In this document: positions 7,941 to 30,443 of the stretch, in pieces
Numbering within the stretch: the first letter of the stretch is position 1
Layout of the letters: each line of letters begins with the position of its first letter
NCBI GenBank assembly: GCA_030603665.1
Contig: JAUVXJ010000006.1
Span: 54,781 to 118,780 of the forward strand
Origin: Chloroflexota bacterium
Lineage (GTDB): Bacteria; Chloroflexota; Anaerolineae; UBA7937; B3-Chlor
Reading direction: 5' to 3'
Length of the DNA: 64,000 nucleotides
Translations under genes and position numbers: made by a program
Notes under the pieces: generated by a model
Told to the model about the DNA's origin: nothing
The model's database searches: none
Seen by the model: the letters and a program-made list of their open reading frames with translations, nothing else

Positions 7941-7970
7941 CGACCAAGCTCACCTGCCGCTTTGTTAGGC
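7941..7970 (-). repeat. Internally deleted attC remnant marking the distal end of the array
   Basis: Minus strand GCCTAAC-AAA-GCGGCAGGTGAGCTTGGTCG; the right arm matches the sites at 9021 and 16652. Confidence 0.7.
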
Positions 7971-8945
7971 TTTGTTATTATGTTCCAAAGTTATTACTAC
8001 ATTTCCCTTCTTGTGCCCTCTTTCAACATAGCTATGAGCCTCGGCAGTTTGTTCTAACGGATAGCGTCTATCTATGACCGATTTCATCTTCCCCGCCTCA
8101 ATAAGCTCTTTGAGGAAAACTACATCTTCGGTACTATTCTCTGCTATCGCGAATATCGCTTTCTTGCTGCTTGTCATCGAAGTCCATAGCCCTCGAACAA
8201 TCTGTGGCAGCCCAGGGCTAGCTAAAAGATAGCGTCCATTTTGCTTTAGCGATCTTATACTACCTGAAAACGAACTCTTGCCTACAGCGTCAAAAACAAT
8301 ATCATAGGTCTCACCGCCTTTGGTAAAATCCTCTTTAGTGTAATCAATTACCTTATCGGCTCCCAGAGATTTCACCAATTCCAAATTCGTGGTACTGCAT
8401 ACCCCGGTAACTTCTGCCCCAAAGTACTTGGCAAGCTGTACCGCAGCAGTACCTACACTTCCAGAAGCTCCATAGATAAGAACTTCTTGTCCGCTCTGGA
8501 TGTTACCCTTGTCTCTAAGGAAAAACAATGCGGATAATGCCCCAAAAGGAACAGCGGCGGCTTCCTCATAGGTCATATTGGCCGGTTTTATTGCCACCGT
8601 CCCTTCTTCAGGCAGACATTTGTACTCGGCATGAGTACCGATGTACTCGCCAACACCGGTAGATCCGAAAACTTGGTCACCTTTCCTAAATACCTTTACA
8701 TCTTTGCCTACTGCTTCAATCTCCCCGGCTAGGTCAGACCCTAGTATAGTATTCTTTGGCCTTGGGAAACCCATCATGATTCTTCCCCAAAATGGGTCAC
8801 CCTTTCGAGATCTCCAGTCCCCTGATGATACTGTTGTCGCATATACCTTTACCAGTATTTCATTGTCCTTGGGAGTAGGTCTTGCTACCTCTTTGAGCTG
8901 AAGAACATCCGGTGGTCCGTATCTTGTGTATACAATCGCTTTCAT
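7965..8945 (-). CDS. Zn-independent MDR family NAD(P)H oxidoreductase, copy 1
   Basis: MKAIV..YGPPDVL start, GASGSVG nucleotide-binding motif, C-terminal [17 protein letters not shown]; no structural-zinc 4-Cys cluster. Confidence 0.9.
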
Positions 8946-9020
8946 GAGTCTCCTCCTTATCTACTTTGATTTGGCCATTTTCAATGTAGTTCACTACCAT
9001 ACATCCTGCAAGCTAGCAAT
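8946..9020 (-). repeat. Conserved ~75-bp MDR-cassette leader (other copies: 12799-12874, 16595-16651, 20080-20155, 21294-21368, 30342-30416)
   Basis: Shared core like GATCCGGTCATTTTGCGTGTAGTTCACCA (+ strand), lying between the GTTRRRY-type box and the MDR start codon. Confidence 0.8.
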
Positions 9021-9091
9021 ACCCAACGACCAAGCCCACCTGCCGCTATTCCGCTGCACTTCATAGCGCCAACTGTAACGCTTTGTTAGGT
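9021..9091 (-). repeat. attC-like site (hybrid arms)
   Basis: Minus strand ACCTAAC AAAGCGTTACAGTTGG...CGCTATGAAGTGCAGCGGAATAGCG...GCTTGGTC GTTGGGT. Confidence 0.8.
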
Positions 9092-9155
9092 CCTGCTATT
9101 ATGCTCCACAGTTATGCCTACATTCCCCTCTTTATGGCCTTCTTCGACATACCTC
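9086..9155 (-). pseudogene. 3' remnant of an MDR gene
   Basis: Encodes YVEEGHKEGNVGITVEHNSRT*, the MDR C-terminus, ending in the attC box. Confidence 0.75.
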
Positions 9156-9205
9156 AAGACTCATTCTACTTCCTCCTTTTTCCTTTCAGTCCTGCTTGCC
9201 GAACA

Positions 9206-9889
9206 CTAATCTAGATGACTGCCGTCGCAAAAAGGTCTATTAGAGCTCTTCCCACATCCGCAGAGGGTTACACGATTGCGAACTTCATATGTTGTACCAT
9301 CTGCTGATTCGATAGGAATGCCGCCCCGGACCCAGATAGGGCCCGTCTTCCCTGACTGAGTGTCCCAAACCAGACCGATAGACGGTTCGAAGACAGGCTC
9401 GATAGCTGTGCCCCTTTCATCCCAGACTACCAGCCTTCCGGAAGGGCAATCACAGGCTTCCTCGATAGCTATTTCTCTGGCATCGAGATTATGGGATTCT
9501 TCGGTGAGTTGCCATATTCCCCCGGCGCGGTCGCAGAAACGGGCGGTGGCACAGAAATCCGGTGCGTCGGTGAGTATGAGGCCTGGACCGGTTATTTCGT
9601 CGGCTTGCTCTAGATAGGGAGTGCGGGCAGCTTCTTCTGTACCGTCGAACTTGATTCTAACGTGAGTACCATCGCAAAATGGCCGGTTACGGGAGCGACC
9701 GCACCGACAGAGAGCATAGTTCTCCAGCGTCGGATATTCTTTGCCTTCTTTCCAGCCATGACTCTGCCCATCGGCATCAACCCGGATGATCTGCTCCGAA
9801 AGTGGAATCCCTCCCGTTACGAGGTAAGGGCCGTTCTTGGATACCTTGATTCTGTATTTGGCTACTTCTTGAGGATTGATTTCTGACAT
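9206..9889 (-). CDS. CDGSH iron-sulfur domain protein (two CDGSH motifs)
   Basis: ALCRCGRSRNRPFCDGTH and TLCGCGKSSNRPFCDGSH plus a central CATARFC...CPSG domain; start placed at ATG 9889. Confidence 0.88.
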   Translation of the reverse strand: MSEINPQEVAKYRIKVSKNGPYLVTGGIPLSEQIIRVDADGQSHGWKEGKEYPTLENYALCRCGRSRNRPFCDGTHVRIKFDGTEEAARTPYLEQADEITGPGLILTDAPDFCATARFCDRAGGIWQLTEESHNLDAREIAIEEACDCPSGRLVVWDERGTAIEPVFEPSIGLVWDTQSGKTGPIWVRGGIPIESADGTTYEVRNRVTLCGCGKSSNRPFCDGSHLD

Positions 9890-9899
9890 TCCCGTGTAT

Positions 9900-10172
9900 C
9901 TACACCATGGCAATCTTGGTCTTATTGTCTTCGAATTCAACTTCAAAGACCGTCTCGTCTTTTGCTCTACCTCCAAGAAGACCTATTCTGGGGCCAGCGA
10001 TGCATTTGCCGGTTGGTACATTGAATTTGGCGCCGTGGTTGGGGCAAGTAATCACCTTCTTGTGTCCCTTTTCAACATACCTGTGAGCCTCGGCCATCTG
10101 TTCCAATGGATGGCGTCGATCTATGACCGCCTTTGGCTTTCCCGCCTCAATAAGCTCTTTGATGTGCTCCAT
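9900..10172 (-). pseudogene. Chimeric ORF: MDR C-terminus fused in frame to a Rieske ferredoxin C-terminal half
   Basis: [20 protein letters not shown] joined to [22 protein letters not shown] (second Rieske box CxxH only). Confidence 0.7.
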
Positions 10173-10193
10173 TTAACCAGTTTATGCCCGTCT

Positions 10194-10886
10194 TTACGAC
10201 TCGGAAACGACTGCAGATGAATTGAATCCTTTAACTATAAGCCATACCGCAAATGCCATTTCTTGCACGGCTATTGGAAGGAATAGAATGTCTAGATTGA
10301 TGCCGATAAACTGCAACAAGTAGGTTGCGAACGACAATGCGGCTCCAATAAGACCCCAACCTGATAACCATCGAGGAATGAGTCTTGTTCTATACAGTAT
10401 GTAGTTTAGCATCAGAGCAGACAGGGACCAAACGAGTCCAGGCCCAATCATAAAGGCCCATTCACGTGCTGCTAGTAACAAGGTGCCTAAGGTTTGAAAA
10501 TAGGAAGCATCCGGAGCTCCTGCTTTCACAAACTCCTGACTTAATGTCAACAGTGTTAGTAGGATGATACTGCCAACAATAGTGCTAAGACCCTCAATGA
10601 ACCTGAGACTGAAGAACCCAAGAGCTAAGGCTTCATTATGCCTTTTCAAGATTGGGAACAGCATAATTGGAATGCCAATAACTGCAAGGGCCCAAATTAA
10701 CTCGATGAGCATTCCTGTCAACACTTGGTTTTCATTTGCAGAAACACTGACAAGATAATCCGGGATAGGTTCCCCTATGATTCCTCCTCCCAAGAATCCC
10801 AAAAAAGGGGCAGTCATTATGGGCGCTGCCGTCGCAACTATGAATAATACTCCCACAATTCTTGCGGTCTTCTTGTCTGAATTCAT
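10194..10886 (-). CDS. DUF4386-like membrane protein
   Basis: MNSDKKTARIVGVLFI start, RLIPRWLSGWGLIG and E...AVWLIVKGF end, multi-TM. Confidence 0.8.
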   Translation of the reverse strand: MNSDKKTARIVGVLFIVATAAPIMTAPFLGFLGGGIIGEPIPDYLVSVSANENQVLTGMLIELIWALAVIGIPIMLFPILKRHNEALALGFFSLRFIEGLSTIVGSIILLTLLTLSQEFVKAGAPDASYFQTLGTLLLAAREWAFMIGPGLVWSLSALMLNYILYRTRLIPRWLSGWGLIGAALSFATYLLQFIGINLDILFLPIAVQEMAFAVWLIVKGFNSSAVVSES

Positions 10887-10919
10887 TTCTTCTTCCCTTT
10901 GTTTCTGCTGTTTGGATTG

Positions 10920-10943
10920 TCCTGTGCAGTTACCTTGTTAGGT
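10920..10943 (-). repeat. attC left-half remnant
   Basis: ACCTAAC AAGGTAACTGCAC on the minus strand, overlapping the stop codon of the MDR remnant. Confidence 0.5.
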
Positions 10944-11249
10944 TCTGTTATTATGCTCCACAGTTATTACCACATTTCCCTTCTTGTGCCCCTTATCAAC
11001 ATAGCTATGAGCCTCGGCAATCTGTTCGAGCGGATAGCGTCTATCTATGACCGATCTTATCTTTCCCGCCTCAATAAGCTCTTTGAGGGAGATTAGATCT
11101 TCAGGACTTTCGGTTGACAGCGCACATATTGCTTTCTTGCCTCCTATTATTGAAGTCCTTAGCATTCGAACAAGCTGTCTCATCCCAAAGCCGGCGGGGG
11201 CAGAGATGAGGGTCAGTTTGCGATGCGATCCGTTCGCCGAGCATGTCAC
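10938..11249 (-). pseudogene. Chimeric remnant: MalT/LuxR-type P-loop fragment fused to the C-terminal ~80 aa of an MDR
   Basis: [13 protein letters not shown] followed by [31 protein letters not shown]; preceded by a GTTGAGT box at 11248-11254. Confidence 0.7.
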
Positions 11250-11316
11250 TCAACGGCCCAATGGTCGCTTCCTCCAGAGCGAGGCTACACTGCCGCGTGC
11301 AGTCCGTGGCCGTCAA

Positions 11317-11643
11317 TCACGGCCGGCTCTTGAAGGCTTCCATAAGTGCGGGATAGAAGCCGCTCAGCGCAGCCACAAGCACGGCTAGTTTCACCGCAGC
11401 GAGCCATGTCAGGTTTGCGCTAATCAGACCCTGAGCGACCGCTCCGGGGAACAGGTCGGGAACGACCCACGCCCACACGAACTTGAACACGACCACCGAA
11501 ATGACAAAGGTCACGGCGACGGCGATGAGGATGGCGATCCCTATTGGCACCCCTTCAGTCACCCGTCTTTCTACTTCTTCAGCCACCCGCTTTTCTACTT
11601 CTTCAGCCATCCGCTTCTCTGCTTCGTCTCTTGACTCCTCCAT
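11317..11643 (-). CDS. Small membrane protein with N-terminal coiled-coil (108 aa), copy 1
   Basis: AAGGAGG RBS; near-identical to 21435-21761; EKRxAEEV repeats and two TM segments. Confidence 0.8.
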   Translation of the reverse strand: MEESRDEAEKRMAEEVEKRVAEEVERRVTEGVPIGIAILIAVAVTFVISVVVFKFVWAWVVPDLFPGAVAQGLISANLTWLAAVKLAVLVAALSGFYPALMEAFKSRP

Positions 11644-11811
11644 TGTAGTATCCTCCTTCATTTGATCCATAATATGCTCTAGTTGTACTCCTTCTAGGCG
11701 GCAACTTACAATACACAAGCGCATCCTTGATTGCCTGCGGCATCCGTCGCAGCCTCTACCCAGGCCGCCCCCTCCTGCTCACAGCCCCCAGCCGCCATCC
11801 GCGTCGCTTTG

Positions 11812-12798
11812 TTAGGTTTTGTTGTTATGCTCCACAGTTATGACTACATTTCCCTTCTTGTGCCCTTTGTCGACATACCTGTGAGCCTCGGGGATTTGGT
11901 CCAACGGATAGCGTCTATCTATGACCGACTTCATCTTCCCCGCCTCAATAAGCTCTTTGAGGAAAACCAAATCTTCCGTCCTAGAGGACGACGTCCCAGC
12001 TATTACTTTCTTGCCGCTTGTCATTGAAGTCCATAGCTTCTGAAGAAGTGGCAGCCCAGGGCCAGCTACAACATAGATTCCTTCTTTCTTTAGCGATCCT
12101 ATACAACCTGAGAGCGAACCCTTGCCCACCACGTCAAGAATGACATCATGGGTCTCACCGCTCTTGGTGAAATCTTCTTGAGTGTAGTCAATGACCTGGT
12201 CTGCACCAATCGAGCGCAGCATGTCCAATTTCGCCGTGCTGTCCACGCCAGTCACTTCAGCCCCAAAGTACTTGCCAAGCTGTATCGCCATAGTACCTAT
12301 ACTTCCGCCCGCACCATTAATCAGAAGCCTTTGTCCGCTCTGGATATCTCCTCTTCTAAGAAAGAACAATGCTTCAAGCCCCCCAACAGGAACGGCGGCT
12401 TCTTCTTCATAGGTCATATTGGCCGGCTTTGTTGCCAGCGCCCCTTCCTCAGGCAGGCATTTGTACTCGGCATAAGAACCAAAACTCATCCCGGTAGGTC
12501 CAAAAACTCGGTCACCTTTCCTAAATAGTTTTACGTCTTTGCCTACTGCTTCAATTCCTCCGGCTAACTCCTGCCCTAGTATAGTTATTCTCTTGGGTCT
12601 TCTGAGACCATTGTATATCCGCATGGGGAGCGATAAGAAGAGAGGGGATTTGAGACCTCGCATCTCACAGTCCCCTGCTGTTACTGTTGTCGCATATATC
12701 CTTATCAGTACTTCATTGTCCTTGGGAGTAGGTTTTTCTACCTCTTCGAGCTGAAGACCATCCGGCGGTCCGTATTCTCTCCATACAATTGCTTTCAT
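11812..12798 (-). CDS. MDR family oxidoreductase, copy 2
   Basis: Same motifs (GAGGSIG); the stop codon forms ACCTAAC at 11811-11817. Confidence 0.9.
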
Positions 12799-12874
12799 AG
12801 GTATTCCTCGACAGTTGCCTTGATCCGGTCATTTTGCGTGTAGTTCACCACAATCTATTCTATTGGTCTGCAAA

Positions 12875-12981
12875 GCCTAACGGTCGTGGCATAAGCGGCG
12901 CCCCACACATCTACATTAACCTCAGCTTCTCTCGGAGCGCATGCTATGCTCCTCCGCGTCCGCTTGATGCCATTGTTAGAC
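12875..12981 (-). repeat. Intact attC site (107 bp)
   Basis: Minus strand GTCTAAC AA TGGCATCAAGCGGACGCG ... GCGCCGCTTATGCCACGACC GTTAGGC; paired arms with the typical single unpaired base (GCATCAAGC vs GCTTATGC), which orients the site with the genes. Confidence 0.9.
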
Positions 12982-13044
12982 GGCTCATTGACCGATGATC
13001 TCAGGTTGCTCCAATACTCCCTAAGCTCAAAAGGTTCCTAAGCT

Positions 13045-13740
13045 CTAACTTACCGTATTGTTAGCTAGCGCCGAGGGCGCCTGGCAGCCAACAATCGCCG
13101 GGGCCTCGTGGATGAGCTCGTCATTCTCGAGAGCCTCCACCATGAACAGGGCAAAGTCCACGCGGCGCGTGATGTTGCTCTCCAGGATGGGGTCGCCCAC
13201 GTGCCTGCTCCACACCGGTAGGCCCTGGCTCTCACCCTCTTCGAGGTCGCTCCCACGCACGACCGTCCACAGGGTGTCGCTGGCAAACACCCGCCGGCAC
13301 GCTTCCACCTGATCGTCGATGTCCACGGCGCGAGCTAGCCGCCCGAGCCAGCCGAAGGCTTTCACGACCGCTCTGGAGGTCCACGAGTAGACGTCCTGGC
13401 CGTCCATCGTAATATGCCAGCCGCAAGAGAATATGAGGCGCGCGTCCGGGCGCGCGTGGTCGAGTACCGCCTGGGCCGTTCCCGACGAGTACTGGTGAAC
13501 GCCCCAAGGTACCAGCACGGTGAGCACCCCGTCACACCCGGCGACCGCCTTCTTGATGGCCTCGCGGTCGTTCGTCGCTCCGGGAATGACGGTGATGCGC
13601 CCCTTGAACGCGTCGAGTTTGCCTACGCTGCGCTCCCGACAAACGCCAACCACCTCGTAGCCCCGATCCAGCGCGTGCTGCACCATGTACTGCCCGAGCT
13701 TCCCCGATGCCCCCACGATACAGACCTTCTTCATATTCAT
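13045..13740 (-). CDS. NAD(P)H-binding oxidoreductase (atypical SDR / flavin reductase-like)
   Basis: KKVCIVGASGKLG Rossmann motif, WTVVRG and TRRVDFALFM; higher GC than its neighbours. Confidence 0.8.
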   Translation of the reverse strand: MNMKKVCIVGASGKLGQYMVQHALDRGYEVVGVCRERSVGKLDAFKGRITVIPGATNDREAIKKAVAGCDGVLTVLVPWGVHQYSSGTAQAVLDHARPDARLIFSCGWHITMDGQDVYSWTSRAVVKAFGWLGRLARAVDIDDQVEACRRVFASDTLWTVVRGSDLEEGESQGLPVWSRHVGDPILESNITRRVDFALFMVEALENDELIHEAPAIVGCQAPSALANNTVS

Positions 13741-13907
13741 CCTCTCGCGTCCTCTAGCTATGCGGCCATGGTTGTGGCGCGTGATCCGAGGGCTCCAATG
13801 GCGGGCGCCAAGATCCACCCTAGTCTTACAGCTCTTGTGAAGACAGTACTTGAAGAAGACATCTTACCTGGTCGCTATCTTAACCAACTATCCCGATTCG
13901 CAGTGGC

Positions 13908-14038
13908 AGATAACGGCCAAGCTCACCGGGCACGCGGCACAACGGGTTCAACGATTGAACAGCCAGAAGACCGAGGTGAAGGGGAATACGTCGAAAAGCC
14001 GAAAGACGAGCGTGCTCCGGTGCAACGCCTTGCTATGC
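13908..14038 (-). repeat. attC site with variant AGC inverse core
   Basis: Minus strand GCATAGC AAGGCGTTGCACCGGAGCACGC ... GCGTGCCCGGTGAGCTTGGCC GTTATCT. Confidence 0.82.
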
Positions 14039-14080
14039 GTCCGTTGCGGGGGATTCGACGTGAGTCCACTGTATCCCCAC

Positions 14081-14452
14081 TTAAACGTGCTGATCGACAA
14101 GAATTGGGTTCCCATCGGGGTCGACAGCGACAAAGCTCGCCGGTCCTGTGGTTGTCTCGTCGGCTTCGGTCACTAGCTGCACACCTTGCGCTTTCAACTG
14201 GCGCTGTAGATCACGAACGTCGGTGAATGTATCGAGCTTGCTTGCGTTGCTGTCCCAGCCCGGATTGAAGGTTAACATGTTCTTTTCGAACATGTCCTGA
14301 AAAAGACCGATTGCGTGATCGCCGTTCTTTAGAATTAGCCAGTTCTGTGAGGCATCTCCGCCGAAGACGCTGAAGCCAAACTTCTCGTAGAAAGCCCTCG
14401 AAGCTTCGATGTCTTTGACAGCCAAGCTGATCGAGAATGTACCGAGTTCCAT
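14081..14452 (-). CDS. VOC/glyoxalase family protein (complete single-gene cassette)
   Basis: [19 protein letters not shown] and GPASF...[12 protein letters not shown]; flanked by attC sites on both sides. Confidence 0.88.
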
Positions 14453-14491
14453 GATTCCCTCCCTTGGAAGACAACTCTGCCGGCGTCAGAC

Positions 14492-14584
14492 GCATAGCGG
14501 TCGGCGCTTAACCGGCGGCGTTCCTTGGCAGCTCTATTTCGCATGGTAGAGCTATAGCCGTCCGCGTTGGAGCGCTTGTTAGGC
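14492..14584 (-). repeat. attC site with variant GCT core
   Basis: Minus strand GCCTAAC AAGCGCTCCAACGCGGACGGC ... GCCGCCGGTTAAGCGCCGACC GCTATGC. Confidence 0.82.
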
Positions 14585-14692
14585 TTTGCTTTCATGTGCC
14601 AACGTGATTACTACGTGTCCCTTCTTGTGCCCCTTGTCGGCATACCTGTGAGCCTCGGCAATATGTTCAAAGGGATAGCGTCGATCAGCGAC
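14579..14692 (-). pseudogene. 3' remnant of an MDR gene
   Basis: [37 protein letters not shown], ending in GCCTAAC. Confidence 0.75.
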
Positions 14693-14727
14693 CGTCCGAC
14701 GGTGGCTCGAGCGCTACGGCTCCCTGA

Positions 14728-14913
14728 TTACGAGGTTTCCTTCAGCAGGTCCACCACCAGCCAGCAAGCTGCGCCGACCGCTAGAAAGCAGACCGCCTGG
14801 GGTGTGTCAGAGCTCCTGTACTGCTCGCGCCCCTCCTCCGTGCTCAGATCCGCCCCCGTCAATTCGCGGCACTTGATGGTCTCCATCTCGGCCTCGAAGC
14901 GGCGACGAAACAC
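14728..14913 (-). pseudogene. C-terminal fragment of a C-GCAxxG-C-C family putative redox protein
   Basis: RRFEAEMETIKCRELTGADLSTEEGR...C pattern; the N-terminal half is absent. Confidence 0.55.
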
Positions 14914-14965
14914 ATGTGAGAGAAAGACGAACAGGGCGGAGCCACCAGACGAGAATCCGCGGCCT

Positions 14966-16591: not shown

Positions 16592-16651
16592 CATACTCCT
16601 CAAGAATCGCCTAAGTGTAGCTCATCACAATCTATGCTATGAATCTGCAAG

Positions 16652-22804: not shown

Positions 22805-22852
22805 CAGTTTCCTCCAAGATTGCGCGGCATATTGGTTGGATGCAGCACTTTG

Positions 22853-23836
22853 TCAGGTCATGTTATGTGCCACAGTGATGACTGCTTTACCTAGGACGTG
22901 TCCTTCTTCAAGGTACCGGAAAGCTTGAGCGGCCTCGCTCAACGGGTAACATCTATCTATGACAGGTACGACCTTGCCGCTTTCGAAGAGCTCTGCCAAA
23001 AGAACCAAGTCTTCTCTATTGTTTGCATCCCAGGCATTGAGACCTATCTTCTTGCTCCCCATCCTGGATATCAGAGTCCCTAGGAATACGACTTGGAGAA
23101 GTGTGGCCAAGGAACCTCCGACCCAGACATAGACTCCCTCGGGACTCAAAGCACGCCGGTAATCGAGAACCGAACGATATGCCACAACATCAAAGATCAG
23201 ATCATAGCGTTGCCCACTCTTGGTGTAGTCCTCTTGGGTGTAATCAAGAACATGGTCAGCACCAATGGAGCGCAGCATGTCCAGTTTCATCGCGCTATCC
23301 ACGCCGGTCACTTCGGCCCCAAAGTACTTGGCCAACTGAACCGCAAACGTTCCCATACCACCGCCCGCACCATTGATCAGGACCTGTTGTCCTCGCTGAA
23401 TCTGTCCTTTGTCGCGAAGACTCTGCAGGGAGATGATTGCCGAGTGAGGATAGGTCGCTGCTTCCTCGAATGTCATACTGGCCGGTTTCAGCGCCAGTGC
23501 ATTCTCAGAAGCACACACATACTCAGCAAAGGTGCCATAACCATACGGATAAGATAAGTCCCCCCATACCTCATCACCTGGCTGAAACCGCTTTACGTTT
23601 CCGCCAACCGCCTCAACCCTCCCGGCCATGTCTGTACCGAGTATCTTGTACCTTGGTCTTATGGGCCCAACGAAGCGCGCGTGCCACTCACCTCTCAGGG
23701 TCTCCAGGTCACCTGCATTGACGGACACCGCATGAACTCTTACCAGTGCTTCATCGTCCTTGGGAGTGGGTCTTTCTACCTCTGTGAGCTGAAGGACATC
23801 CGGTGGTCCGTATTCTGTGCATACGATCGCCTTCAC
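22853..23836 (-). CDS. MDR family oxidoreductase, copy 9
   Basis: GTG start at 23836 (VKAIVCTEYGPP) behind GGAGG; GAGGGMG. Confidence 0.9.
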   Translation of the reverse strand: MKAIVCTEYGPPDVLQLTEVERPTPKDDEALVRVHAVSVNAGDLETLRGEWHARFVGPIRPRYKILGTDMAGRVEAVGGNVKRFQPGDEVWGDLSYPYGYGTFAEYVCASENALALKPASMTFEEAATYPHSAIISLQSLRDKGQIQRGQQVLINGAGGGMGTFAVQLAKYFGAEVTGVDSAMKLDMLRSIGADHVLDYTQEDYTKSGQRYDLIFDVVAYRSVLDYRRALSPEGVYVWVGGSLATLLQVVFLGTLISRMGSKKIGLNAWDANNREDLVLLAELFESGKVVPVIDRCYPLSEAAQAFRYLEEGHVLGKAVITVAHNMT

Positions 23837-24012
23837 GAGTTTCCTCCAAACTTGCTTTGAGGGGAAGCAGGCGAACACCCATCGCTCTTTCATCCTCAGA
23901 ATCCCATAGAGCGGGAGAGGATAAGTCCCCTGCGAATGACGCGGGCGCATCCACTCTTCCTTCCTCCATTGCCTTCAGCGGGCCCGCGTCATTCCCCTAT
24001 CGTCAAGACTCC

Positions 24013-24720
24013 CTACGAGGCCCTCGACAGACTGTAGACCTTCCATCCCAGGACGAAATAGAAGATGAGGCATGCGAAATAGCTGCCCGCGCCGATCATA
24101 GAGGAGGGATCGACCATTTGGAGGACTGCCGCTACGAGACCAACCACCCCGAGCAGCACGCTCACCCCGCCAAAGCCCTTGCCAAAGGCCGGGGCCCCGA
24201 GCATGGCCACTCCGAGGGCAATGAGACCTGTCGGCACGACAAAGAACCCTACGTAGAGCATCGCATCGAATACGCCCAACGTCGCCTGCCACAAGAGGGC
24301 GAGTGTCGCCTGCTCCCCGGGGGTCGCCCCAGGAGCGTGATAGAGGTCGGAGAGCGGAGCGTGAGCGACATGCGGGAGAGTTCCGGCCATGAGCACGGCG
24401 AGACCCAGAATGGCCAGGACGCTCCCGAAGAGGGCGGGCGCGAGGCTCGTCCTCCGGAGAGCCCGATACAAGGCAAGGAAGAGGGTGACCTCCAAGATGA
24501 GAGCCACCAGGTATATGCCATTCTCTACTATGCGGGCCGCTCTGATGTCGGGGAACCTCGTGACAAACCCCGCGAGGTCGACAGGATCCTCCATTCCCAC
24601 GGGACCCGCGAGTATTACGACCCAGGTGAGAATGAGGAGGATGCCACCCAGCATACCGGCCAGACCACCCCATCGCAGAACGCCTTTCTCCTCCTCCATC
24701 TTCTGCAAATCATTCATCAT
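24013..24720 (-). CDS. DUF4386-like multi-TM membrane protein
   Basis: 235 aa, about 6 TM segments, AAGGAG RBS, LRWGGLAG..GG N-terminal pattern. Confidence 0.65.
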   Translation of the reverse strand: MMNDLQKMEEEKGVLRWGGLAGMLGGILLILTWVVILAGPVGMEDPVDLAGFVTRFPDIRAARIVENGIYLVALILEVTLFLALYRALRRTSLAPALFGSVLAILGLAVLMAGTLPHVAHAPLSDLYHAPGATPGEQATLALLWQATLGVFDAMLYVGFFVVPTGLIALGVAMLGAPAFGKGFGGVSVLLGVVGLVAAVLQMVDPSSMIGAGSYFACLIFYFVLGWKVYSLSRAS

Positions 24721-24854
24721 TTATCTCCTTTGTTTTCGACATCTTTGATGAGTTTCATTGAATTGGACTTGACAAGACTGTGGTCGCCATCCTGTTCCTA
24801 AGAGCTGAAATGGGCTAGAAATGCTCTATAGGCAAACCTCCTTCTTAAATATCG

Positions 24855-25142
24855 CTATCGTGCCTCAATTTGCTGTTTGACATCTGACGCATCTGCCTGG
24901 CCGGGTTGAACGCGATTGATCGAAAGCAATGGCATTCCGAAACCACGCACTCTTCTTAGCAATCCATACAACGCGGCCTGATCGACCGCCGGGCCGGTCA
25001 AAAGCGTACCGCCGTCCTCTTCCAGCGTGATGGTCAGGCCCCAAAACCAGTCTGTTCATTGACGACCCAGATGGCCCTTGAGCCTGACTTGATAGATCAT
25101 TGCGGGCCTCGGATCAGTTTCTGGGTTGAGTTTGTTTGACAT
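24855..25142 (-). pseudogene. Small conserved hypothetical protein with an in-frame TGA
   Basis: MSNK..YQVRLKGHLGRQ*TDWFWGLTITLEEDGGTLLTGPAVDQAALYGLLRRVRGFGMPLLSINRV; the stop at 25056-25058 is at a position that I recall as Trp in this family. Confidence 0.75.
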
Positions 25143-25251
25143 TACCCTGTACCTGTTGTGGCCGGTCATAACAGCCTGTAACCTATGCCACTTGCGCGCA
25201 ACCCCGCGACTCTTGCACAAATGGGTGGCGATGTGTCTGCGGTACGGGTTG

Positions 25252-26259
25252 TCATTTGCCATTATCCCCCACAGTAATTACTATCTTCCCCAGGTGGGGT
25301 TCCTCTGAAAGATACCGGAGAGCTTCAGGGACCTCACTTAACGGGTACCGTCTATCTATGACAGGCACCACTTTGCCGGCTTCAAAAAGCTCCCCCAATA
25401 GAGCCAAATCCTCCTTCCTGTTTGGTTTCCAAATCACGACACCCATCTTCTTGCTCCCGCTCCTTGAAACCAATGGTCCTAGAAACATGGCTTGGAAAAT
25501 CCCAGCCGTGGAACCTCCGACAAAGACACAGATTCCCCCGGGATTCAAAGCACGCCTGTAAGCGAGAATCGAACGACGTGCCACAACATCAACAATCAGG
25601 TCATAACGCTGCCCACTCTTGGTGAAGTCTTCTTGAGTGTAATCAATGACATGGTCTGCACCAATCGAGCGCAGCATGTCCAGTTTCATCGTGCTGTCCA
25701 CGCCAGTCACTTCAGCCCCAAAGTGCTTGGCGATCTGCACCGCAAACGTACCCACACCACCACCCGCGCCATTGATCAGAACCTTTTGCCCTGACTGAAG
25801 CGGTCTCTTGTGCTCAGGCCTCACTCCCATAGGAGCCTCGCGAAGATTCTGCAGGGCGAGGACTGCCGCTTGAGGATAGGCCGCTGCTTCCTCCCATGTC
25901 ATACTGGCCGGTTTCGGCCTTAATGCGTCTTCAGGAACACGTACATACTCAGCAAGAGCGCCCCAACCATACTCCGTCAAATCCCCCCATATCTCATCAC
26001 CTGGCTGAAACTGCTTCACGCTTCTGCCAACCGCTTCAACCCGCCCGGCTATGTCAGTTCCGAGTATCTTGTACGTTGGTCGTAGAGGCGCCACCATGCG
26101 GACTATGAAGTCACCTCTCAGGGTTTCCAAGTCAGCTCCATTTAAGGATGACGCATGAACTCTTACCAGTACTTCCCCCTCCTTGGGGGTAGGTCTTTCT
26201 ACCTCCTTGAGCTGAAGAACATCCGGTGGGCCGTATTTCGTGCATACAATCGCTTTCAT
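25252..26259 (-). CDS. MDR family oxidoreductase, copy 10
   Basis: Same motifs; GAGGGVG; extra insert EAPMGVRPEHKRP. Confidence 0.9.
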   Translation of the reverse strand: MKAIVCTKYGPPDVLQLKEVERPTPKEGEVLVRVHASSLNGADLETLRGDFIVRMVAPLRPTYKILGTDIAGRVEAVGRSVKQFQPGDEIWGDLTEYGWGALAEYVRVPEDALRPKPASMTWEEAAAYPQAAVLALQNLREAPMGVRPEHKRPLQSGQKVLINGAGGGVGTFAVQIAKHFGAEVTGVDSTMKLDMLRSIGADHVIDYTQEDFTKSGQRYDLIVDVVARRSILAYRRALNPGGICVFVGGSTAGIFQAMFLGPLVSRSGSKKMGVVIWKPNRKEDLALLGELFEAGKVVPVIDRRYPLSEVPEALRYLSEEPHLGKIVITVGDNGK

Positions 26260-26307
26260 GAGTTTCCTCCGAGATTGCGCCCCATATCGGTTGGGTGCAG
26301 CGTTTCG

Positions 26308-26575
26308 CTAGGTTCTGCTGTTATGTTCCATAGTTATTAGGATCTTTCCTAGGTTGGGTTCTTCTTCAAGATACCGGAGAGCTTCAGGGACCTCACTCAA
26401 CGGGTAACGTCTATGAATTACAGGTACTACTTTGCTGGCTTCAAAAAGCTCTACCAAAAATGCCAAGTCTTCCTTATTGTTTGGTTTCCACGGCACTGCA
26501 CCCATTTTCTTACTCCCGGTCATAGAAATCAATGGTGCCAATTTCACCGCACGCGGTCTCTTTGCTTGAATTCAT
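26308..26575 (-). pseudogene. Chimeric remnant: DUF4386-type start (MNSSKETA) joined out of frame to an MDR C-terminus
   Basis: RBS and first codons match the gene starting at 10886; then PLISMTGSKKMG..VIHRRYPL..EHNSRT*. Confidence 0.7.
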
Positions 26576-26597
26576 TTTTCCTTCCCTTTGACCCTGG

Positions 26598-27644
26598 CTA
26601 CGCGCTGGCAACGAGAACCACCTTGCCCGCGTATCCGCCGCGCTCAAGCAGCTCGTGAGCACGAACGGCCTCAAGCAATGGAATGCGCTCCGCCACCACC
26701 GGCTTGATCCTGCCCGCTGCCAGCGAATCGAAGAGCTCCGTCAGCGTTTCGCGGTACCAAGCGTTGTGCGTGAGAGGAAACTTTAGTATGTTCGGGTCTA
26801 ACGGCACCCGCCTGCTGCCCGGAATGAGCTTAAGCAGAAAAGCCGCCAACCCGCTGAGTAGAATGGCCCCCATCCCCTTCTTGGATGTCGCGACATTGCC
26901 GAACATCACCAACCGTCCGCCTTTGCGCAGGGTTCGGTATGAACGCCAGAGTTGCCGTGCGCCGCCGATGGTGTCGAACACGGCATCCACCCCATCGCCG
27001 GTAAGAGTACGGATGCGCTCGACAAAGTCTTCAGTGCGGTAGTCGATCGGTGTGGCTCCGAGTGCGGACACGAGTTCGTGGTTGTACTTGGACGCCGTGC
27101 CGTACATCTCCAGCCCGGCCAGCTTGCCGAGCCCGAGCAGAGCGGTCCCTATGCCTCCCCCCGCACCGTGGACCAGGATGCGCTCGCCGCTCCGCACGCT
27201 GGCAGCCCGGTGCAGGTACAGGTGCGCGGTGAGGTAGTTCTCCACCATGCAGACGGCCTCGGCAGGATCCAGGCCCGAGGGGACGGGCACCAACTGGCTG
27301 GCGGGCCGGCATATGAACTCCGCGTAGCCACCGCCATCACCAAAGGTCCAGCCGGCAACCCTCTGCCCCGGCTCGACGGTTGACACTCCCTCGCCCAGCT
27401 TGTCCACTACACCAACGATGTCCCCGCCCGGTGTGAACGGCACGCGCGGAGTCCCGGGGACCGAAATCGAGCGGACCATGCGATCGAAGCCGGAGACTCC
27501 GGCGGCCACGACCTTCACCCGAACCTCGCCGGCCTGGGGTTCCGGGAGATCCTCTTCCACCACCTGCAACACGTCCGGCCCGCCATGCTGCGACACGACG
27601 ACGCGATGATGTTTCACTGCATTCGGTTCTTCTTTGGTAGTCAT
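26598..27644 (-). CDS. MDR family oxidoreductase, second subfamily, copy 11
   Basis: Paralogue of 16864-17880; AAAGGAG RBS. Confidence 0.9.
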   Translation of the reverse strand: MTTKEEPNAVKHHRVVVSQHGGPDVLQVVEEDLPEPQAGEVRVKVVAAGVSGFDRMVRSISVPGTPRVPFTPGGDIVGVVDKLGEGVSTVEPGQRVAGWTFGDGGGYAEFICRPASQLVPVPSGLDPAEAVCMVENYLTAHLYLHRAASVRSGERILVHGAGGGIGTALLGLGKLAGLEMYGTASKYNHELVSALGATPIDYRTEDFVERIRTLTGDGVDAVFDTIGGARQLWRSYRTLRKGGRLVMFGNVATSKKGMGAILLSGLAAFLLKLIPGSRRVPLDPNILKFPLTHNAWYRETLTELFDSLAAGRIKPVVAERIPLLEAVRAHELLERGGYAGKVVLVASA

Positions 27645-27785
27645 CGTTTCTTCTCCTTTTTGACTACTCCGAGATTGGTGAAATCTTACGCTTACAGGAT
27701 AGCAGCCAGGTGGTATTAGTATTATGCCCTGGTATGACCGCGAAAACGTTAGTTAGTGGGTTAACTCTATGGTTGTCACATCCAT

Positions 27786-28745
27786 TCACATAGTTATGAC
27801 CACTTTTCCTTTGGCGTGTCCTTCTTCAAGATACCGGAGAGCTTCAGGGACCTCACTTAACGGGTAACGTCGATCTATTACAGGTACTACTTTGCCGGCT
27901 TCAAAAAGCTCGTCCAAAAAAACCAAATCTTCCTTCTTGTTTGGCTTCCACATCACCATACCTATCTTCTTACTCCCGATCATTGAGATAAATAGTCCTA
28001 GAAGCACATTTAGAAACACTCGAGCCATGGGACCTCCGACCATGACACAAATTCCCTTGGGACTCAAGGCACGCTTATAATCGAAAATCGAACGATATGC
28101 CACAACATCAACAACCAGGTCATAACGCTGCCCACTTTTGGTGAAATCTTCTTCAGTGTAATCAATGACATGATCTGCACCAATCGAGCGCAGCATGTCC
28201 AGTTTCCCCGTGCTGTCCACGCCAGTCACTTCAGCCCCAAAGTACTTGGCGATCTGCACCGCAAACGTACCTACACCGCCCCCCGCACCATTGATCAAAA
28301 CCTTCTGTCCTGGCTGAATCTGTCTCTTATCGCGAAGACCCTGCAGGGCGAGGACTCCCGCTTGAGGATAGGTCGCTGCTTCTTCGAATGTCATACTGGC
28401 CGGTTTCGGCGCCAATTCCTTTTCAGGAACAGATACAGACTCGGCAAAAGCGCCGCAACCACACACGAATAGGTCCCCCCATACCTCATCACCTGGTTGA
28501 AACTGCTTTACGTTTCTGCCAACCGCCTCAACCCGCCCCGCTATGTCAGATCCGAGTATCTTGCTTTTTGGTTTTTGTTTCAGAGACCCCCCGTACGTCA
28601 CTCTCAGTGTTTCCAAGTCAGCCGCATTTAAGGATGCCGCATGAACTTCTACCAGTACTTCATTGTCCTTGGGAGTAGGTTTTGCTACCTCTTTGAGCTG
28701 AAGAACATCCGGTGGTCCGTATTTTGTGCAAACGATCGCTTTCAC
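27786..28745 (-). CDS. MDR family oxidoreductase, copy 12
   Basis: GTG start at 28745 behind GGAGG; same motifs. Confidence 0.9.
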   Translation of the reverse strand: MKAIVCTKYGPPDVLQLKEVAKPTPKDNEVLVEVHAASLNAADLETLRVTYGGSLKQKPKSKILGSDIAGRVEAVGRNVKQFQPGDEVWGDLFVCGCGAFAESVSVPEKELAPKPASMTFEEAATYPQAGVLALQGLRDKRQIQPGQKVLINGAGGGVGTFAVQIAKYFGAEVTGVDSTGKLDMLRSIGADHVIDYTEEDFTKSGQRYDLVVDVVAYRSIFDYKRALSPKGICVMVGGPMARVFLNVLLGLFISMIGSKKIGMVMWKPNKKEDLVFLDELFEAGKVVPVIDRRYPLSEVPEALRYLEEGHAKGKVVITM

Positions 28746-28862
28746 AGGTATTCCTCCGAGTTCGCTTCGCTCGCGAGCGATGGAGATATCTCCCGAAGTC
28801 GCCCTATCCAAGCAGTGACTTTGACTCTTTACACTGTACTTCGCAGCTCATGAGACTCAATC

Positions 28863-29231
28863 TCAGGCTACCCACTTCCATGCATACCAGACAGTCAGCA
28901 CATTGAACACAAGTCCTACAATGATTAAGAACTTGTCATACGCGGAAGGGTATGTTGGCAACCCAAAGAGATTAAAAAGAAAGAGGATAGTGGCTGCGAC
29001 GATGCTTACCCAGCGAATCGCGGGATACTTCAACGTCAGGGTCAGCACAACCATAACGATCGGAATCAACATGAAAACTGCGAGTCCCAACCACACTACC
29101 TGACTTGGTTGCGTACCCATGATCTCTCCCGGTTTGAAGTCACCAGCGAATATTCGCAGCACATCCCCCAGAAGATAGACCAACATCAAGACTACCCACA
29201 TTCCTGAAAGCACTATCCTCGTATCAACCAT
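28863..29231 (-). CDS. DUF6326-like small membrane protein
   Basis: R..LS..W...ML.YL.GDV, IPIVMVVLTL and terminal VWYAWKW pattern. Confidence 0.7.
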   Translation of the reverse strand: MVDTRIVLSGMWVVLMLVYLLGDVLRIFAGDFKPGEIMGTQPSQVVWLGLAVFMLIPIVMVVLTLTLKYPAIRWVSIVAATILFLFNLFGLPTYPSAYDKFLIIVGLVFNVLTVWYAWKWVA

Positions 29232-29366
29232 GATTCAATCTCCTCCCTTATGAATGAGAATAGACACTGTTACGTATCGGCTACTTCAACTTGTATCACT
29301 CGTGCCGTGCGCGCAACCGTGCGACTCCCACACTAATAGGTGGCGATGCTTCTGCAATAGGGGTTC

Positions 29367-30341
29367 TCATTTGGTGTTATGCTCCACAGTGATGACTACT
29401 TTGCCTTGGGCGTGTCCTTCTCCGTAATACCGGAAAGCTTCAGGGACCTCGCTCAACGGGTAACGTCTGTCTATTACAGACTTCACTTTGCCTGCTTCAA
29501 TAAGCTCCTTCATGAAGACTAGATCCTTCTGGTTTACGCTGTGGGACAATTGAACCACCTTCTTACTCCCGGTCATTGAAATCAATGGACCTCGGAACAG
29601 AGCACTCGCGGAAAATGCGCATGCAACATAAACCCCCTTGGGACTTAAAACACGCACATAATCTGAGACCGAGCGATTGGCCACAATGTCAAAAATCAGG
29701 TCATAACGCTGCTCACTTTGGGTGAAATCCTCTTGAGTGTAATCAATGACCTGGTCCGCACCAATCGATCGCACTAAGTCGACATTCCGCGTGCTGCACA
29801 CGCCAGCCACTTTAGCCCCGAACGATTTGGCGATCTGCACTGCAAACGTACCGTTACCCCCAGACGCACCATTAATCAAAATCCTCTGCCCTGGCTGAAT
29901 CTGTCCTTTGTCGCGAAGGCCCTGCAAGGCGGTGACTGCCGCTTGAGGTACAGCCGCTGCTTCCTCCCATGTCATATTGGCCGGTTTCGGGGCCAATGCA
30001 TATTCAGGAGCAGATACATATTCGGCAAAAGCTCCAAAACCATCGTCGCCCAGGTCCCCGAATACCTCATCACCTGGCTGAAACTGCTTTACGTTTCTGC
30101 CAACCGATTCAACCCGCCCCGCCACGTCACCTCCGGGTATCTTGTGTTTTGGGTTTAGAAGCCCTCCGCCCGCTAGGCGCACCAAGAACGGTTTGCCTCT
30201 CACGAGAGCCAGGTTAGCCCAGACTATCGATGCTGCGTGTATTCTTATCAGTACTTCGTTGTCTTTGGGAGTAGGTTCTTCTACCTCTTTGAGCTGAAGA
30301 ACATCCGGTGGTCCGTATTCTGTGTATACAATCCCTTTCAT
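29367..30341 (-). CDS. MDR family oxidoreductase, copy 13
   Basis: [31 protein letters not shown]. Confidence 0.9.
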   Translation of the reverse strand: MKGIVYTEYGPPDVLQLKEVEEPTPKDNEVLIRIHAASIVWANLALVRGKPFLVRLAGGGLLNPKHKIPGGDVAGRVESVGRNVKQFQPGDEVFGDLGDDGFGAFAEYVSAPEYALAPKPANMTWEEAAAVPQAAVTALQGLRDKGQIQPGQRILINGASGGNGTFAVQIAKSFGAKVAGVCSTRNVDLVRSIGADQVIDYTQEDFTQSEQRYDLIFDIVANRSVSDYVRVLSPKGVYVACAFSASALFRGPLISMTGSKKVVQLSHSVNQKDLVFMKELIEAGKVKSVIDRRYPLSEVPEAFRYYGEGHAQGKVVITVEHNTK

Positions 30342-30416
30342 GGGTTTCCTCCAAATTCACCCTGATCCGGTCATCTTACGTGTAGTTCACCACCACCTAA
30401 CCAGTAAGTCTGCAGA

Positions 30417-30443
30417 ACCTAGCGGCCCGCGCTGAGCGGCGCC
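30417..30443 (-). repeat. attC right half with variant GCT core
   Basis: GGCGCCGCTCAGCGCGGGCC GCTAGGT, followed by the conserved MDR leader. Confidence 0.65.

Follow-up and report, generated by a model that had tools for sequence, protein, structure and literature searches.

A probable integrase-less cassette array holding a mixture of old MDR reductase subfamilies in a Chloroflexota chromosome

Introduction

How does a single chromosomal locus come to hold 13 full-length genes of one enzyme family, and what would a cell do with them? The question is raised by a 64,000-nucleotide stretch of DNA (hereafter the window; C8:54781-118780, contig JAUVXJ010000006.1 of GenBank assembly GCA_030603665.1) from a Chloroflexota metagenome-assembled genome (MAG). 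At 7965-30341 the minus strand of the window carries a set of medium-chain dehydrogenase/reductase (MDR) oxidoreductase genes composed of 11 MKAIV-type genes, 2 MKHH-type genes and 6 fragments. A sequence-only reading of the same DNA had taken this set for an integron-type cassette array in which one cassette lineage was duplicated and diversified. The analysis reported here suggests that the region is, on balance, probably a chromosomal cassette array without an integrase, i.e. a group of clustered attC sites that has no integron-integrase (CALIN), best described as a fossilising sedentary integron array, in which mixed old MDR subfamilies would form a reductase battery.

Integrase-less arrays are common and their biology is poorly understood. 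The portions of Cury et al. 2016 (PMC4889954) used here give the definition and the origins of CALINs, loss of the integrase gene intI among them, and record integrons in Chloroflexi; those of Ghaly et al. 2022 (PMC9668308) describe archaeal integrons as mostly CALINs and propose cross-domain sharing of attC sites and cassette transfer. Parts of Ghaly and colleagues 2021 (PMC8618304) and Nemergut 2008 (PMC2426708) were also drawn on.

Composition of the array

The assembly from which the window comes has 32 contigs, totals 4.19 Mb and is 91% complete; its nearest homologues suggest that the genome is probably Chloroflexota, of an Anaerolineae-like kind. Every sizeable gene across 7965-31099 lies on the minus strand, as do the array features described below. 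Thirteen of the approximately 24 array genes, about half, are MDR genes. That there are 13 full-length, co-oriented copies was confirmed by open reading frames (ORFs) and by a hidden Markov model (HMM) built from the 11 MKAIV copies, which scored all 11 MKAIV genes at 512-598 bits and both MKHH genes at 130-132 bits. Two copies need qualification: 15680-16603 is short, and 19054-20079 has lost its usual stop codon and reads through 8 codons. The earlier count of at least six fragments became exactly six, all on the minus strand, in a six-frame search with the same HMM. These are an N-terminal fragment at 17883-17978 (profile positions 1-31), C-terminal fragments at 26317-26541 (positions 254-327), 14585-14698, 10944-11195 (positions 245-328) and 9095-9157, and a fragment at 10056-10163 (positions 281-316).

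In composition the array stands apart from its surroundings, with G+C falling from about 0.60 in the flanks to 0.48-0.59. G+C at third codon positions (GC3) is 0.41-0.55 in the MKAIV genes, whereas four genes of the flanks have 0.75-0.76. Values of 0.75-0.80, which look native, were found for the MKHH genes, the NmrA-like gene and the second DUF4386-like gene. When the whole assembly was searched with tblastn, the MKAIV type was confined to this array, and the MKHH type had one more relative, on contig C9, at 53% identity.

Recombination sites and cassette boundaries

Sites resembling attC were sought with covariance models made from sites outside the window. The first model (R1) was built from four sites, two beside the intact intI of a class relative (G030) and two immediately behind the 3' ends of MDR homologues from a Bathyarchaeota and an Obscuribacter MAG. 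R2 and R3 were built from 20 and 30 sites, and the R2 training alignment has one duplicated locus (L009 = L021) and one site taken on both strands. With filters off, R1 lost long sites that the default filters detected. The intI of G030 is accompanied by three palindromes with RYYYAAC/GTTRRRY ends, and their 3' halves are like those in the window; the Bathyarchaeota MAG (L038) and the Obscuribacter MAG share both the same MDR gene and the same attC type. R1 also found sites next to intI in two further relatives, G040 and the congener G007, and five more loci had R1 sites next to MDR homologues. As positive controls, arrays in the expected orientation were recovered beside intI, with 3 sites in G040 and 1-2 in G007. 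In an Anaerolineae MAG (G041), 12 sites with E <= 5e-4 begin 1.1 kb from an intact intI, and 10 of these 12 were outside the training set.

In the window R2 and R3 agreed on five sites (E <= 1.3e-3 and <= 4e-4, respectively), all on the minus strand within 9021-20285. The best match, at 13909-14038, lies behind the glyoxalase-family gene (R2 E 1.2e-8; R3 1.3e-8). The R' box of the site at 12875-12981 (R2 E 2.8e-6; R3 2.3e-8), GTTAGGC, starts the leader of the MDR gene 11812-12798. At 20156-20285 (R2 E 2.7e-4; R3 1.1e-4) a site follows the MDR gene 20280-21293, and its R' box, GATAGGT, starts the leader of 19054-20079. The site at 14492-14584 (R2 E 1.3e-3; R3 2.6e-4) is joined to the MDR fragment 14585-14698. 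That at 9021-9091 (R1 E 4.5e-8; R2 1.1e-4; R3 3.6e-4) is joined to the fragment 9095-9157, and its R' box, GTTGGGT, starts the leader of 7965-8945.

Four further sites were marginal under R2 and R3. The first of them, at 16652-16720, has a 3' half of the MDR-cassette type and was the strongest match of R1 (E 6e-13; R2 0.04; R3 2); its R' box (GCTTGGT) begins the shortened leader of 15680-16603. The second, at 7935-7970, is a terminal relic truncated to 36 nt (R1 E 0.1; R2 0.32). The third is a candidate 48-nt hairpin at 21369-21416 with ACCCAGC...GTTGGGT ends (R3 E 8.5), whose R' box begins the leader of 20280-21293. The fourth, at 34849-34910 on the minus strand, is outside the MDR set, behind a nitrilase-family gene at 35080-36072 (R2 E 0.15; R3 0.17). 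All eight R2 matches with E < 1 are on the minus, gene-bearing strand, and every attC match follows an ORF or ORF fragment in the same orientation as the genes. Complementary R''/R' boxes (RYYYAAC/GTTRRRY) were found at 12875-12981, 9021-9091 and 14492-14584, and boxes with departures of one or two bases at 20156-20285, 16652-16720, 13909-14038 and 30417-30423.

Cassette boundaries can also be recognized in the MDR genes themselves. A conserved leader of about 75 nt stands directly behind a GTTRRRY-like box in 6 of the 11 MKAIV genes (starts 8945, 12798, 16603, 20079, 21293 and 30341). The six copies share no sequence upstream of the box, and conservation begins at the GTT of R'. The farthest upstream copy, at 30342-30423, consists of a GCTAGGT box (30423-30417) and the 75-nt leader of 29367-30341. 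The same leader with the same kind of box also precedes homologues in an Anaerolineales MAG (L029) and in the congener G002. At the other end of the gene, a TAA inside RYYTAAC closes 3 of the 11 full-length MKAIV genes (7965, 11812 and 21806), TAG or TGA occupies the same position in two more (20280 and 22853), and four of the five C-terminal MDR fragments have their stop there (TAA in three, TAG in one). The cassette unit that had been described for the MKAIV genes, with a leader behind the core box and a stop codon inside the RYYTAAC box, therefore holds for 6 and 3 of the 11 genes, respectively, and is not general among them.

In several leaders (among them 12799-12881 and 20080-20162) a 17-nt spacer separates the R' box from a TAGATT-like hexamer, and the three together could make up a promoter spanning the cassette boundary. 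One leader copy appeared by eye to contain a hairpin, which was not kept in the other copies.

Three MDR-MDR junctions lack this anatomy and are short fusions of 24-57 nt, among them 22805-22852 (48 nt) and 26260-26316. They start like the 5' half of the MDR attC, matching L038:7006-7040, and end like the ribosome-binding end of the leader, which suggests deletions that took the R' box and most of the leader. A 3' element of a second type lies behind the MDR gene 25252-26259; it is a 61-nt imperfect palindrome, CAACCC...GGGTTG, at 25194-25254, to which the attC models give no match. Similar copies stand behind 29367 (approximately 29309-29369) and, in part, behind 18031. When this element and the leader were sought in 103 loci, an exact IUPAC pattern gave 0 matches, and blastn-short gave only a 22-nt leader match (L025) and one short-junction match (L038). 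Within 9021-11250, unrelated CDGSH and DUF4386 genes lie between MDR C-terminal fragments that retain the MDR attC, as though they had taken the place of the larger part of an MDR gene within its cassette.

A search of the whole window at the Rfam gathering thresholds gave 0 matches. To our knowledge Rfam apparently has no attC family, and this null result is therefore uninformative. A scan for R''/R' pairs with a folding-energy cut-off gave 35 candidates on the minus strand and 33 on the plus strand; it did not set the array off from its GC-rich flanks and was dropped. Elsewhere in the same genome, R2 found a second cluster of three matches on the minus strand of C5:29777-32304, spread over 2.5 kb and lying between three ORFs (277, 214 and 141 aa). 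The 214-aa ORF has an N-terminus that we take to resemble a chloramphenicol-acetyltransferase-type protein. A single R2 match lies at C26:108878-108947.

The missing integrase

No integrase gene accompanies these sites. In the 4.19-Mb assembly, 91% complete, the best match to the integron-integrase model TIGR02249 was Xer-like and reached 69 bits, compared to a cut-off of 265, and a tblastn search of the window for a remnant, using a congener IntI, returned nothing better than E 3.7. When this genome and 40 relatives were screened, 8 of the 41 had an intI above the cut-off, among them G007 (477 bits), where intI is intact and is accompanied by at least one cassette and attC. In another congener, G004, intI is a pseudogene with stops. 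The gene adjoining intI in G007 and G004 has an orthologue here at C7:39630-40502 (87% protein and 81-83% nucleotide identity), and the 1.8 kb of G004 that includes the intI pseudogene correspond to about 160 bp (C7:39465-39626), with synteny to G004 kept on both sides. Since there is no integrase in the window or in the assembly, the array is a CALIN and not an integron. The integron-type array of the sequence-only reading thus stands in its co-oriented attC-derived sites, its boundary at GTT and its interspersed unrelated genes, with the change that it has no integrase. The upstream array end (the DUF4760 gene, 31.1-32.1 kb) was inspected for attI and for the integron promoter Pc, and nothing recognizable was found there; the attI consensus of this lineage is not known. 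In one other locus (L023, G037:C74), two attC matches at 5545-6520 lie downstream of intI and convergent with it, not upstream and divergent, and this may be a differently arranged or a rearranged integron.

The same locus in congeners

Comparison of the locus across relatives, which the sequence-only reading had recommended, showed that the array is not peculiar to this genome. The congener G005 has six family members in an array that is bounded by the same genes on either side; these flanks match 2371-7961 and 37970-43772 at 74-77% nucleotide identity. Within the array, blocks match at 75-85% but stand in permuted order, and the 6.8 kb at 31134-37970 are absent there. Two blocks are kept between congeners, the MKHH gene with 18031 and the series 27786, DUF6326 and 29367. 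The 3' terminus of the array is orthologous with that of G005, including a shared departure from GTT in the last box; the terminal site is 72 nt long in G005 (E 9.7e-5) and a 36-nt stump in the window. The G005 and G002 arrays each have one recognizable attC site. Five family copies were found in G002 and four in each of two class relatives. Overall the family is present in 9 of 41 genomes, this one included, and very fragmented assemblies mostly show none. GC3 of the G005 and G002 copies (0.58-0.73) is closer to the host value than that of the window copies. The lower values in the window may reflect later uptake in its lineage.

Origin of the MDR subfamilies

The phylogeny had 120 rows, comprising 107 full-length homologues from 72 of 80 loci, the 11 MKAIV copies of the window and the two MKHH copies as outgroup. 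Partial high-scoring segment pairs, and those with less than 40% identity or with internal stops, were excluded. The tree was made with IQ-TREE (quick mode, LG+G4), and its branch supports are SH-aLRT values only. The 11 MKAIV copies, which share 49-78% pairwise protein identity, are distributed over at least five old clades, and every one of these also has members from other phyla, among them Asgard archaea; SH-aLRT support is 97-100 for several.

Four copies are in the basal clade A: 29367-30341 (starting MKGIV, with a leader; GC3 0.51; HMM 551 bits), 27786-28745 (GTG start), 25252-26259 and 22853-23836, which is separated from the next MDR gene by the 48-nt fused junction. Clade E (support 99) also has four. 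These are 21806-22804, which ends in a TAA inside ACCTAAC and forms a two-gene unit with a small 108-aa ORF; 19054-20079, which has a leader and the 24-nt junction to the next MDR gene; 18031-19029, which has a GTG start and is 86% identical to a protein of a Promineifilaceae MAG; and 11812-12798, which has both a leader and a TAA inside ACCTAAC. In clade C, 20280-21293, with a leader, groups with the Bathyarchaeota protein of L038 (support 100), and in clade F the last array gene, 7965-8945, which has the lowest GC3 (0.41), groups with cyanobacterial and Clostridia-labelled proteins. The short copy 15680-16603 (approximately 304 aa) has about 40 residues fewer than the others and a different C-terminus in the alignment of the 11 copies; in the tree it falls together with comparably short proteins from two Chloroflexota MAGs (L027 and L028) and is therefore probably a natural short subtype. 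Homologues of the window MDR genes were also found in Asgard, Bathyarchaeota and Thaumarchaeota MAGs. Since every clade mixes phyla, the paralogue set is an accumulation of pre-existing subfamilies with no local radiation, and the proposal that a single cassette lineage was duplicated and diversified at this locus has to be given up.

Nor is the redundancy of the family peculiar to this array. Two to seven full-length copies within about 6 kb were found in 23 of 72 other loci, mostly without detectable attC. Among 24 adjacent pairs, spaced -1 to 186 nt apart, at least 19 unite different clades and 14 combine clade A with another clade. Judged from these sequence comparisons, family redundancy here is a reflection of a widespread habit of the MDR family to occur in mixed sets rather than of local diversification. 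In the complete integron of G041 a tandem MDR pair, one member from clade A and one from clade E, lies between two attC sites. The Anaerolineales MAG locus L027:236-9393 has seven copies in 9.4 kb at as many positions of the tree, together with DUF4386, DUF6326 and the 108-aa ORF; R2 gives no match there, and sequences like attC 3' ends are visible by eye, with no model score. DUF4386 genes neighbour MDR homologues in 9 of 80 loci and DUF6326 genes in 7 of 80. The clearest recurrent neighbourhood is that of an Omnitrophota MAG (L092:537-3209), in which two DUF6326 genes, a DUF4386-like gene and an MDR gene follow one another with gaps of 16-35 nt. Beside the remaining DUF6326 and DUF4386 homologues of the present genome, on C21 and C28, tblastn detected no MDR gene of this family.

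In metagenomes labelled marine sediment or marine, thousands of short contigs match the MDR genes (11200-31199) at 90-99%, with many alternative joints between paralogues. A search of sequencing runs returned 20 runs of 12 studies, each with no more than 0.16 of the sampled words. Contigs were inspected from 4 runs (listed pieces of 119-712 nt, 90-99% identity), and none of these bridges an array junction. The thousands of matching contigs imply that related sequences are abundant in such samples, and the family seems to be both abundant and very diverse in samples with these labels.

Enzyme type

Domain assignments rest on Pfam for 2 of the 13 full-length genes, on NCBIfam for 4, and for the others on the alignment of the 11 copies and the HMM. 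Both copies scanned with Pfam (7965-8945 and the MKHH gene 16864-17880, GC3 0.80) have ADH_N followed by ADH_zinc_N_2. The top NCBIfam model was PIG3 quinone oxidoreductase (TIGR02824), at 148-176 bits for three MKAIV genes and 207 bits for MKHH 16864, below its cut-off of 296.8; the second MKHH gene, 26598-27644 (GC3 0.77, host-like), is assigned to the same PIG3-like, below-cut-off type by its 77% identity to 16864-17880. The nearest solved structures (E 1e-25 to 1e-32) were the enone oxidoreductase 4IDA, the quinone oxidoreductases 3TQH and 1YB5, RTN4IP1 and ceQORH. At the position that we take to be the histidine of the GHE zinc-ligand motif of zinc alcohol dehydrogenases, the 11 MKAIV copies have Q, S, H, M, Q, S, Q, T, T, S and G, and what we take to be the glycine-rich dinucleotide motif is invariant in all 11. 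By alignment and profile, the MDR genes are of the zinc-free quinone/enone-reductase-type branch, in distant relationship to the solved structures. Conservation is lowest in alignment columns of about 41-80 and 261-310, stretches that in this fold presumably take part in forming the substrate pocket and the interface between the domains.

A reductase battery for quinones or unsaturated carbonyls, in which the paralogues would divide the substrates, fits this enzyme type. It also fits the redox or detoxification flavour of the neighbouring genes: NmrA-like, glyoxalase-family and CDGSH genes in the array and nitrilase and beta-lactamase-fold genes upstream. A complex prediction for MDR 29367-30341 with the DUF6326 protein, both entered as alignments, gave a score of 0.00 (mark 0.32) and has no bearing either way on binding.

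Other genes of the array and its flanks

The array genes outside the MDR family encode, by Pfam, CDGSH/Fer4_19, NmrA-like, glyoxalase-family, DUF6326 and DUF4760 proteins, along with two DUF4386-like membrane proteins, a 161-aa membrane ORF and two copies of a 108-aa membrane ORF of no family. From the downstream end they are a CDGSH iron-sulfur and Fer4_19 gene (9206-9976); a DUF4386 membrane protein gene (10194-10886; Pfam, 132 bits); one copy of the 108-aa ORF (11317-11724), 94% identical over 108 aa to the other; an NmrA-like NAD(P)H-binding gene (13045-13818; GC3 0.80), an 81% homologue of which adjoins an MDR homologue in L061; a glyoxalase/bleomycin-resistance (VOC) family gene (14081-14452); the 161-aa ORF (14966-15451), which has no family and is also in the G005 array; the other 108-aa ORF (21435-21761), with a homologue behind an MDR gene in L027; a distantly DUF4386-like gene (24013-24720; Pfam E 1e-4, below cut-off; GC3 0.75); and a DUF6326 small membrane protein gene (28863-29231; weak Pfam match), the 3' neighbour of MDR 29367. 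The DUF4760 gene (30458-31099) forms the upstream array end both here and in G005. A search of the 108-aa ORF against protein clusters returned only uncharacterized clusters, and a full-text search for literature on DUF4386 or DUF6326 found none.

Below 7953 the array is flanked by MnmG and a bactofilin-like gene, and above 37980 by PMT_2 glycosyltransferase and methylmalonyl-CoA mutase genes (Pfam). The segment 31134-37970, which is not in the G005 locus, contains an acyltransferase_3 gene (plus strand), a beta-lactamase-fold gene (minus strand), the CN_hydrolase/nitrilase-family gene 35080-36072 (minus strand) and a DEAD-box helicase gene (plus strand).

Discussion

The data presented in this study suggest an order of events. 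Cassettes would originally have been inserted by an integron integrase, an origin that is mostly shown. The integrase would then have been kept in one congener, reduced to a pseudogene in another and cleanly lost from the syntenic site here. After this loss the attC hairpins would have eroded, and several cassettes would have been fused or truncated by deletions. The array was probably inherited at a fixed locus, from the bactofilin-like gene to the PMT_2 glycosyltransferase gene, with blocks gained, lost and permuted between species. Its 11 MKAIV genes did not arise here by duplication; they belong to at least five old subfamilies, which circulate in many phyla of both Bacteria and Archaea. 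Typically, different members of these subfamilies stand side by side in tandem, in some cases as integron cassettes, and small membrane proteins (DUF6326, DUF4386 and the 108-aa ORF) often follow them. With NAD(P)H as electron donor, the individual enzymes might differ in the quinones or alpha,beta-unsaturated carbonyls that they reduce, so that the whole set would form a reductase battery of broad range. In place of an integron Pc, a promoter in the approximately 75-nt leader at the cassette boundary may drive expression, as one consensus match and the conservation of the leader suggest.

Several results weigh against this account. The 21.4-30.4 kb part of the array, which holds 6 of the 13 MDR genes, has no R2 or R3 match at all, and this half may never have consisted of single cassettes. 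When bottom strands were folded as single-stranded DNA and compared to shuffles, the eight window sites folded no better than the shuffles (z +1.23 to -1.58). Only 12875-12981 (z -1.58) had a canonical fold, with paired R boxes, an unpaired spacer, a long stem and one bulged base. The other seven ranged from +1.23 (34849-34910) to -1.09 (16652-16720), with +0.67 at 9021-9091, -0.69 at 21369-21416, -0.70 at 13909-14038 and -1.04 at 20156-20285. Site identification thus rests on sequence and structure homology to the sites of relatives, not on present-day hairpins, and the models are narrow, since all descend from four seed sequences. Among MDR-homologue loci, 7 of 80 have an R2 match (E <= 0.1), two of them in cyanobacteria, and most tandem MDR clusters elsewhere are without an integron signature. 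A promoter and terminator scan found no excess in the array (11 compared to 13.1 +/- 3.9 expected) and scored one of the six leaders (20155-20128). Finally, an integrase could lie on the missing 9% of the DNA.

Ten integrase-adjacent control sites had canonical folds with a bulged base (z -1.38 to -5.53), and 7 of the 10 were matched by no more than 3 of 200 shuffles. Because the folds of the window sites, unlike these controls, do not rise above their shuffles, the window sites are relics and probably poor or dead substrates. The covariance check suggested from the sequence alone gave a divided answer: models made from sites outside the window found five confident sites in 9021-20285, whereas 21.4-30.4 kb had none. 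As to its kind, the integron interpretation is correct, once it is amended to an integrase-less and decaying array that has attC relics only in part.

In a different explanation, the locus is primarily an ordinary, operon-like tandem MDR cluster with membrane partners, built and kept up by duplication, homologous recombination and block transfer, and its few attC relics came from stray cassettes that landed within or next to it. The siteless half, the 24-57-nt MDR-MDR junctions together with the -1 to 186 nt of the 24 pairs elsewhere, the excess of multi-copy loci (23 of 72) over loci with attC (7 of 80), the seven copies of L027 with the same accessory genes and no R2 match, and the blocks common to congeners (MKHH with 18031; 27786, DUF6326 and 29367) would all be expected of such a cluster. 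However, six MDR genes begin exactly at an R'-type box with a shared leader, and C-terminal fragments are fused to attC-like sites (9021-9157, 14492-14698). The MDR gene has kept its own attC in the Bathyarchaeota and Obscuribacter MAGs, the tandem pair of the complete G041 integron is bounded by attC, and even L027 has the relics of attC 3' ends seen by eye. The short junctions, moreover, look like deletion products of cassette boundaries because they begin with the 5' half of the MDR attC. For these reasons a plain tandem cluster is considered a serious candidate that is nonetheless rather improbable.

If the region is a CALIN, its cassettes might still be excised and reshuffled in trans by an integrase on unassembled DNA or on an incoming mobile element. 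Mobilisation of this kind is discussed in the portions of Cury et al. 2016 (PMC4889954) used here. The 91% completeness of the genome, the intact intI with at least one attC in G007, the further attC in this genome (the C5 cluster of three and the single C26 site) and the variable cassette order between congeners are all in keeping with it, and the weaker amelioration of the window MKAIV genes (GC3 0.41-0.55, compared to 0.58-0.73 in G005 and G002) could mean recent uptake. We nevertheless regard a working array as unlikely. The syntenic intI site is cleanly empty, nothing in 4.19 Mb is above the intI cut-off, hairpins are eroded compared to integrase-adjacent controls, R' boxes are degenerate at several boundaries (GCTAGGT, GATAGGT, GCTTGGT, GTTATCT), and the G005 and G002 arrays have one recognizable site each.

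That the array is an assembly artefact in which strain variants of one or a few MDR genes were stacked is very improbable: the source is a MAG and marine-sediment metagenomes are rich in 90-99% MDR matches with alternative joints, but the copies differ by 22-51% in protein, far beyond strain variation and too much for an assembler to stack, they belong to different old clades, the contig is 219 kb long, and a comparable array with the same flanks is present in an independent congeneric assembly, with more arrays in G002, G032 and G034.

A decaying, integrase-less array thus remains the preferred reading, and it can be extended, speculatively, beyond this locus. Diverged sets of MDR paralogues (clade A with another clade) accompanied by DUF6326 or DUF4386 might be a widespread and undescribed mobile module, a combinatorial battery against membrane-soluble or environmental electrophiles that spread across Bacteria and Archaea, Asgard included, partly as cassettes, with integrase-less arrays fixing such sets. 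We hold this wider proposal only tentatively. The occurrence of multi-copy sets and the same small membrane proteins in many phyla and in both prokaryotic domains does point to a functional module, of which no experimental description was found. The array is a datable example of what follows the loss of an integrase: sites erode, cassettes fuse, the locus is kept through speciation and the genes stay intact. It also shows that a single enzyme family can dominate an array through members that were gathered there and not produced by duplication on site. Its 13 enzymes would be a ready-made natural panel for studying how paralogues divide a substrate range.

At the level of the enzymes, the closest known systems are the zinc-free MDR oxidoreductases of solved structure (strawberry 4IDA, Coxiella QOR 3TQH, zeta-crystallin-type 1YB5, RTN4IP1 2VN8 and chloroplast ceQORH 5A3J). 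These have the same ADH_N and ADH_zinc_N_2 pair and align over the full length. The MKAIV genes are distant from them and reach no NCBIfam equivalog or subfamily cut-off, and searches of structures and literature found no solved structure and no tested activity for the MKAIV clade.

As an array, the region resembles the CALINs in the portions of Cury et al. 2016 (PMC4889954) used here in having at least two co-oriented attC-type sites, promoterless-looking cassettes and no intI nearby or in the genome. It differs in that the sites are eroded and were called by our own covariance models, half of the array is siteless, and about half of the genes belong to one enzyme family. Full-text searches found no literature on MDR-dominated integron arrays, and the supplements of Cury 2016 and Ghaly 2022 might include MDR cassettes. 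The archaeal MDR homologues, among which L038 has the same attC type, fit the cross-domain transfer proposed for archaeal integrons and CALINs (Ghaly et al. 2022, PMC9668308); the searched text of that paper does not mention the MDR family, and its data files may list cassettes.

With sedentary integrons of the Vibrio superintegron type the array shares a fixed, genus-inherited locus, many co-oriented cassettes, related attC sites and species-variable content, and paralogous cassettes are known from Vibrio arrays as well. Here, however, there is no integrase and no recognizable attI or Pc, the genes encode large enzymes (approximately 330 aa) instead of being mostly small ORFs, one family accounts for 13 of the approximately 24 genes, and several multi-gene units lack an internal attC. 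The integron of G041:C145 has what the window array lacks, an intact intI (474 bits) and attC folds with z of -4.4 to -5.5 in 4 of 5 tested, with only 2 MDR genes in the 34 kb examined. The two are nevertheless alike in their phylum-level neighbourhood, in their attC type and in the MDR family itself, which in G041:C145 is carried as a tandem pair of clades A and E within one cassette.

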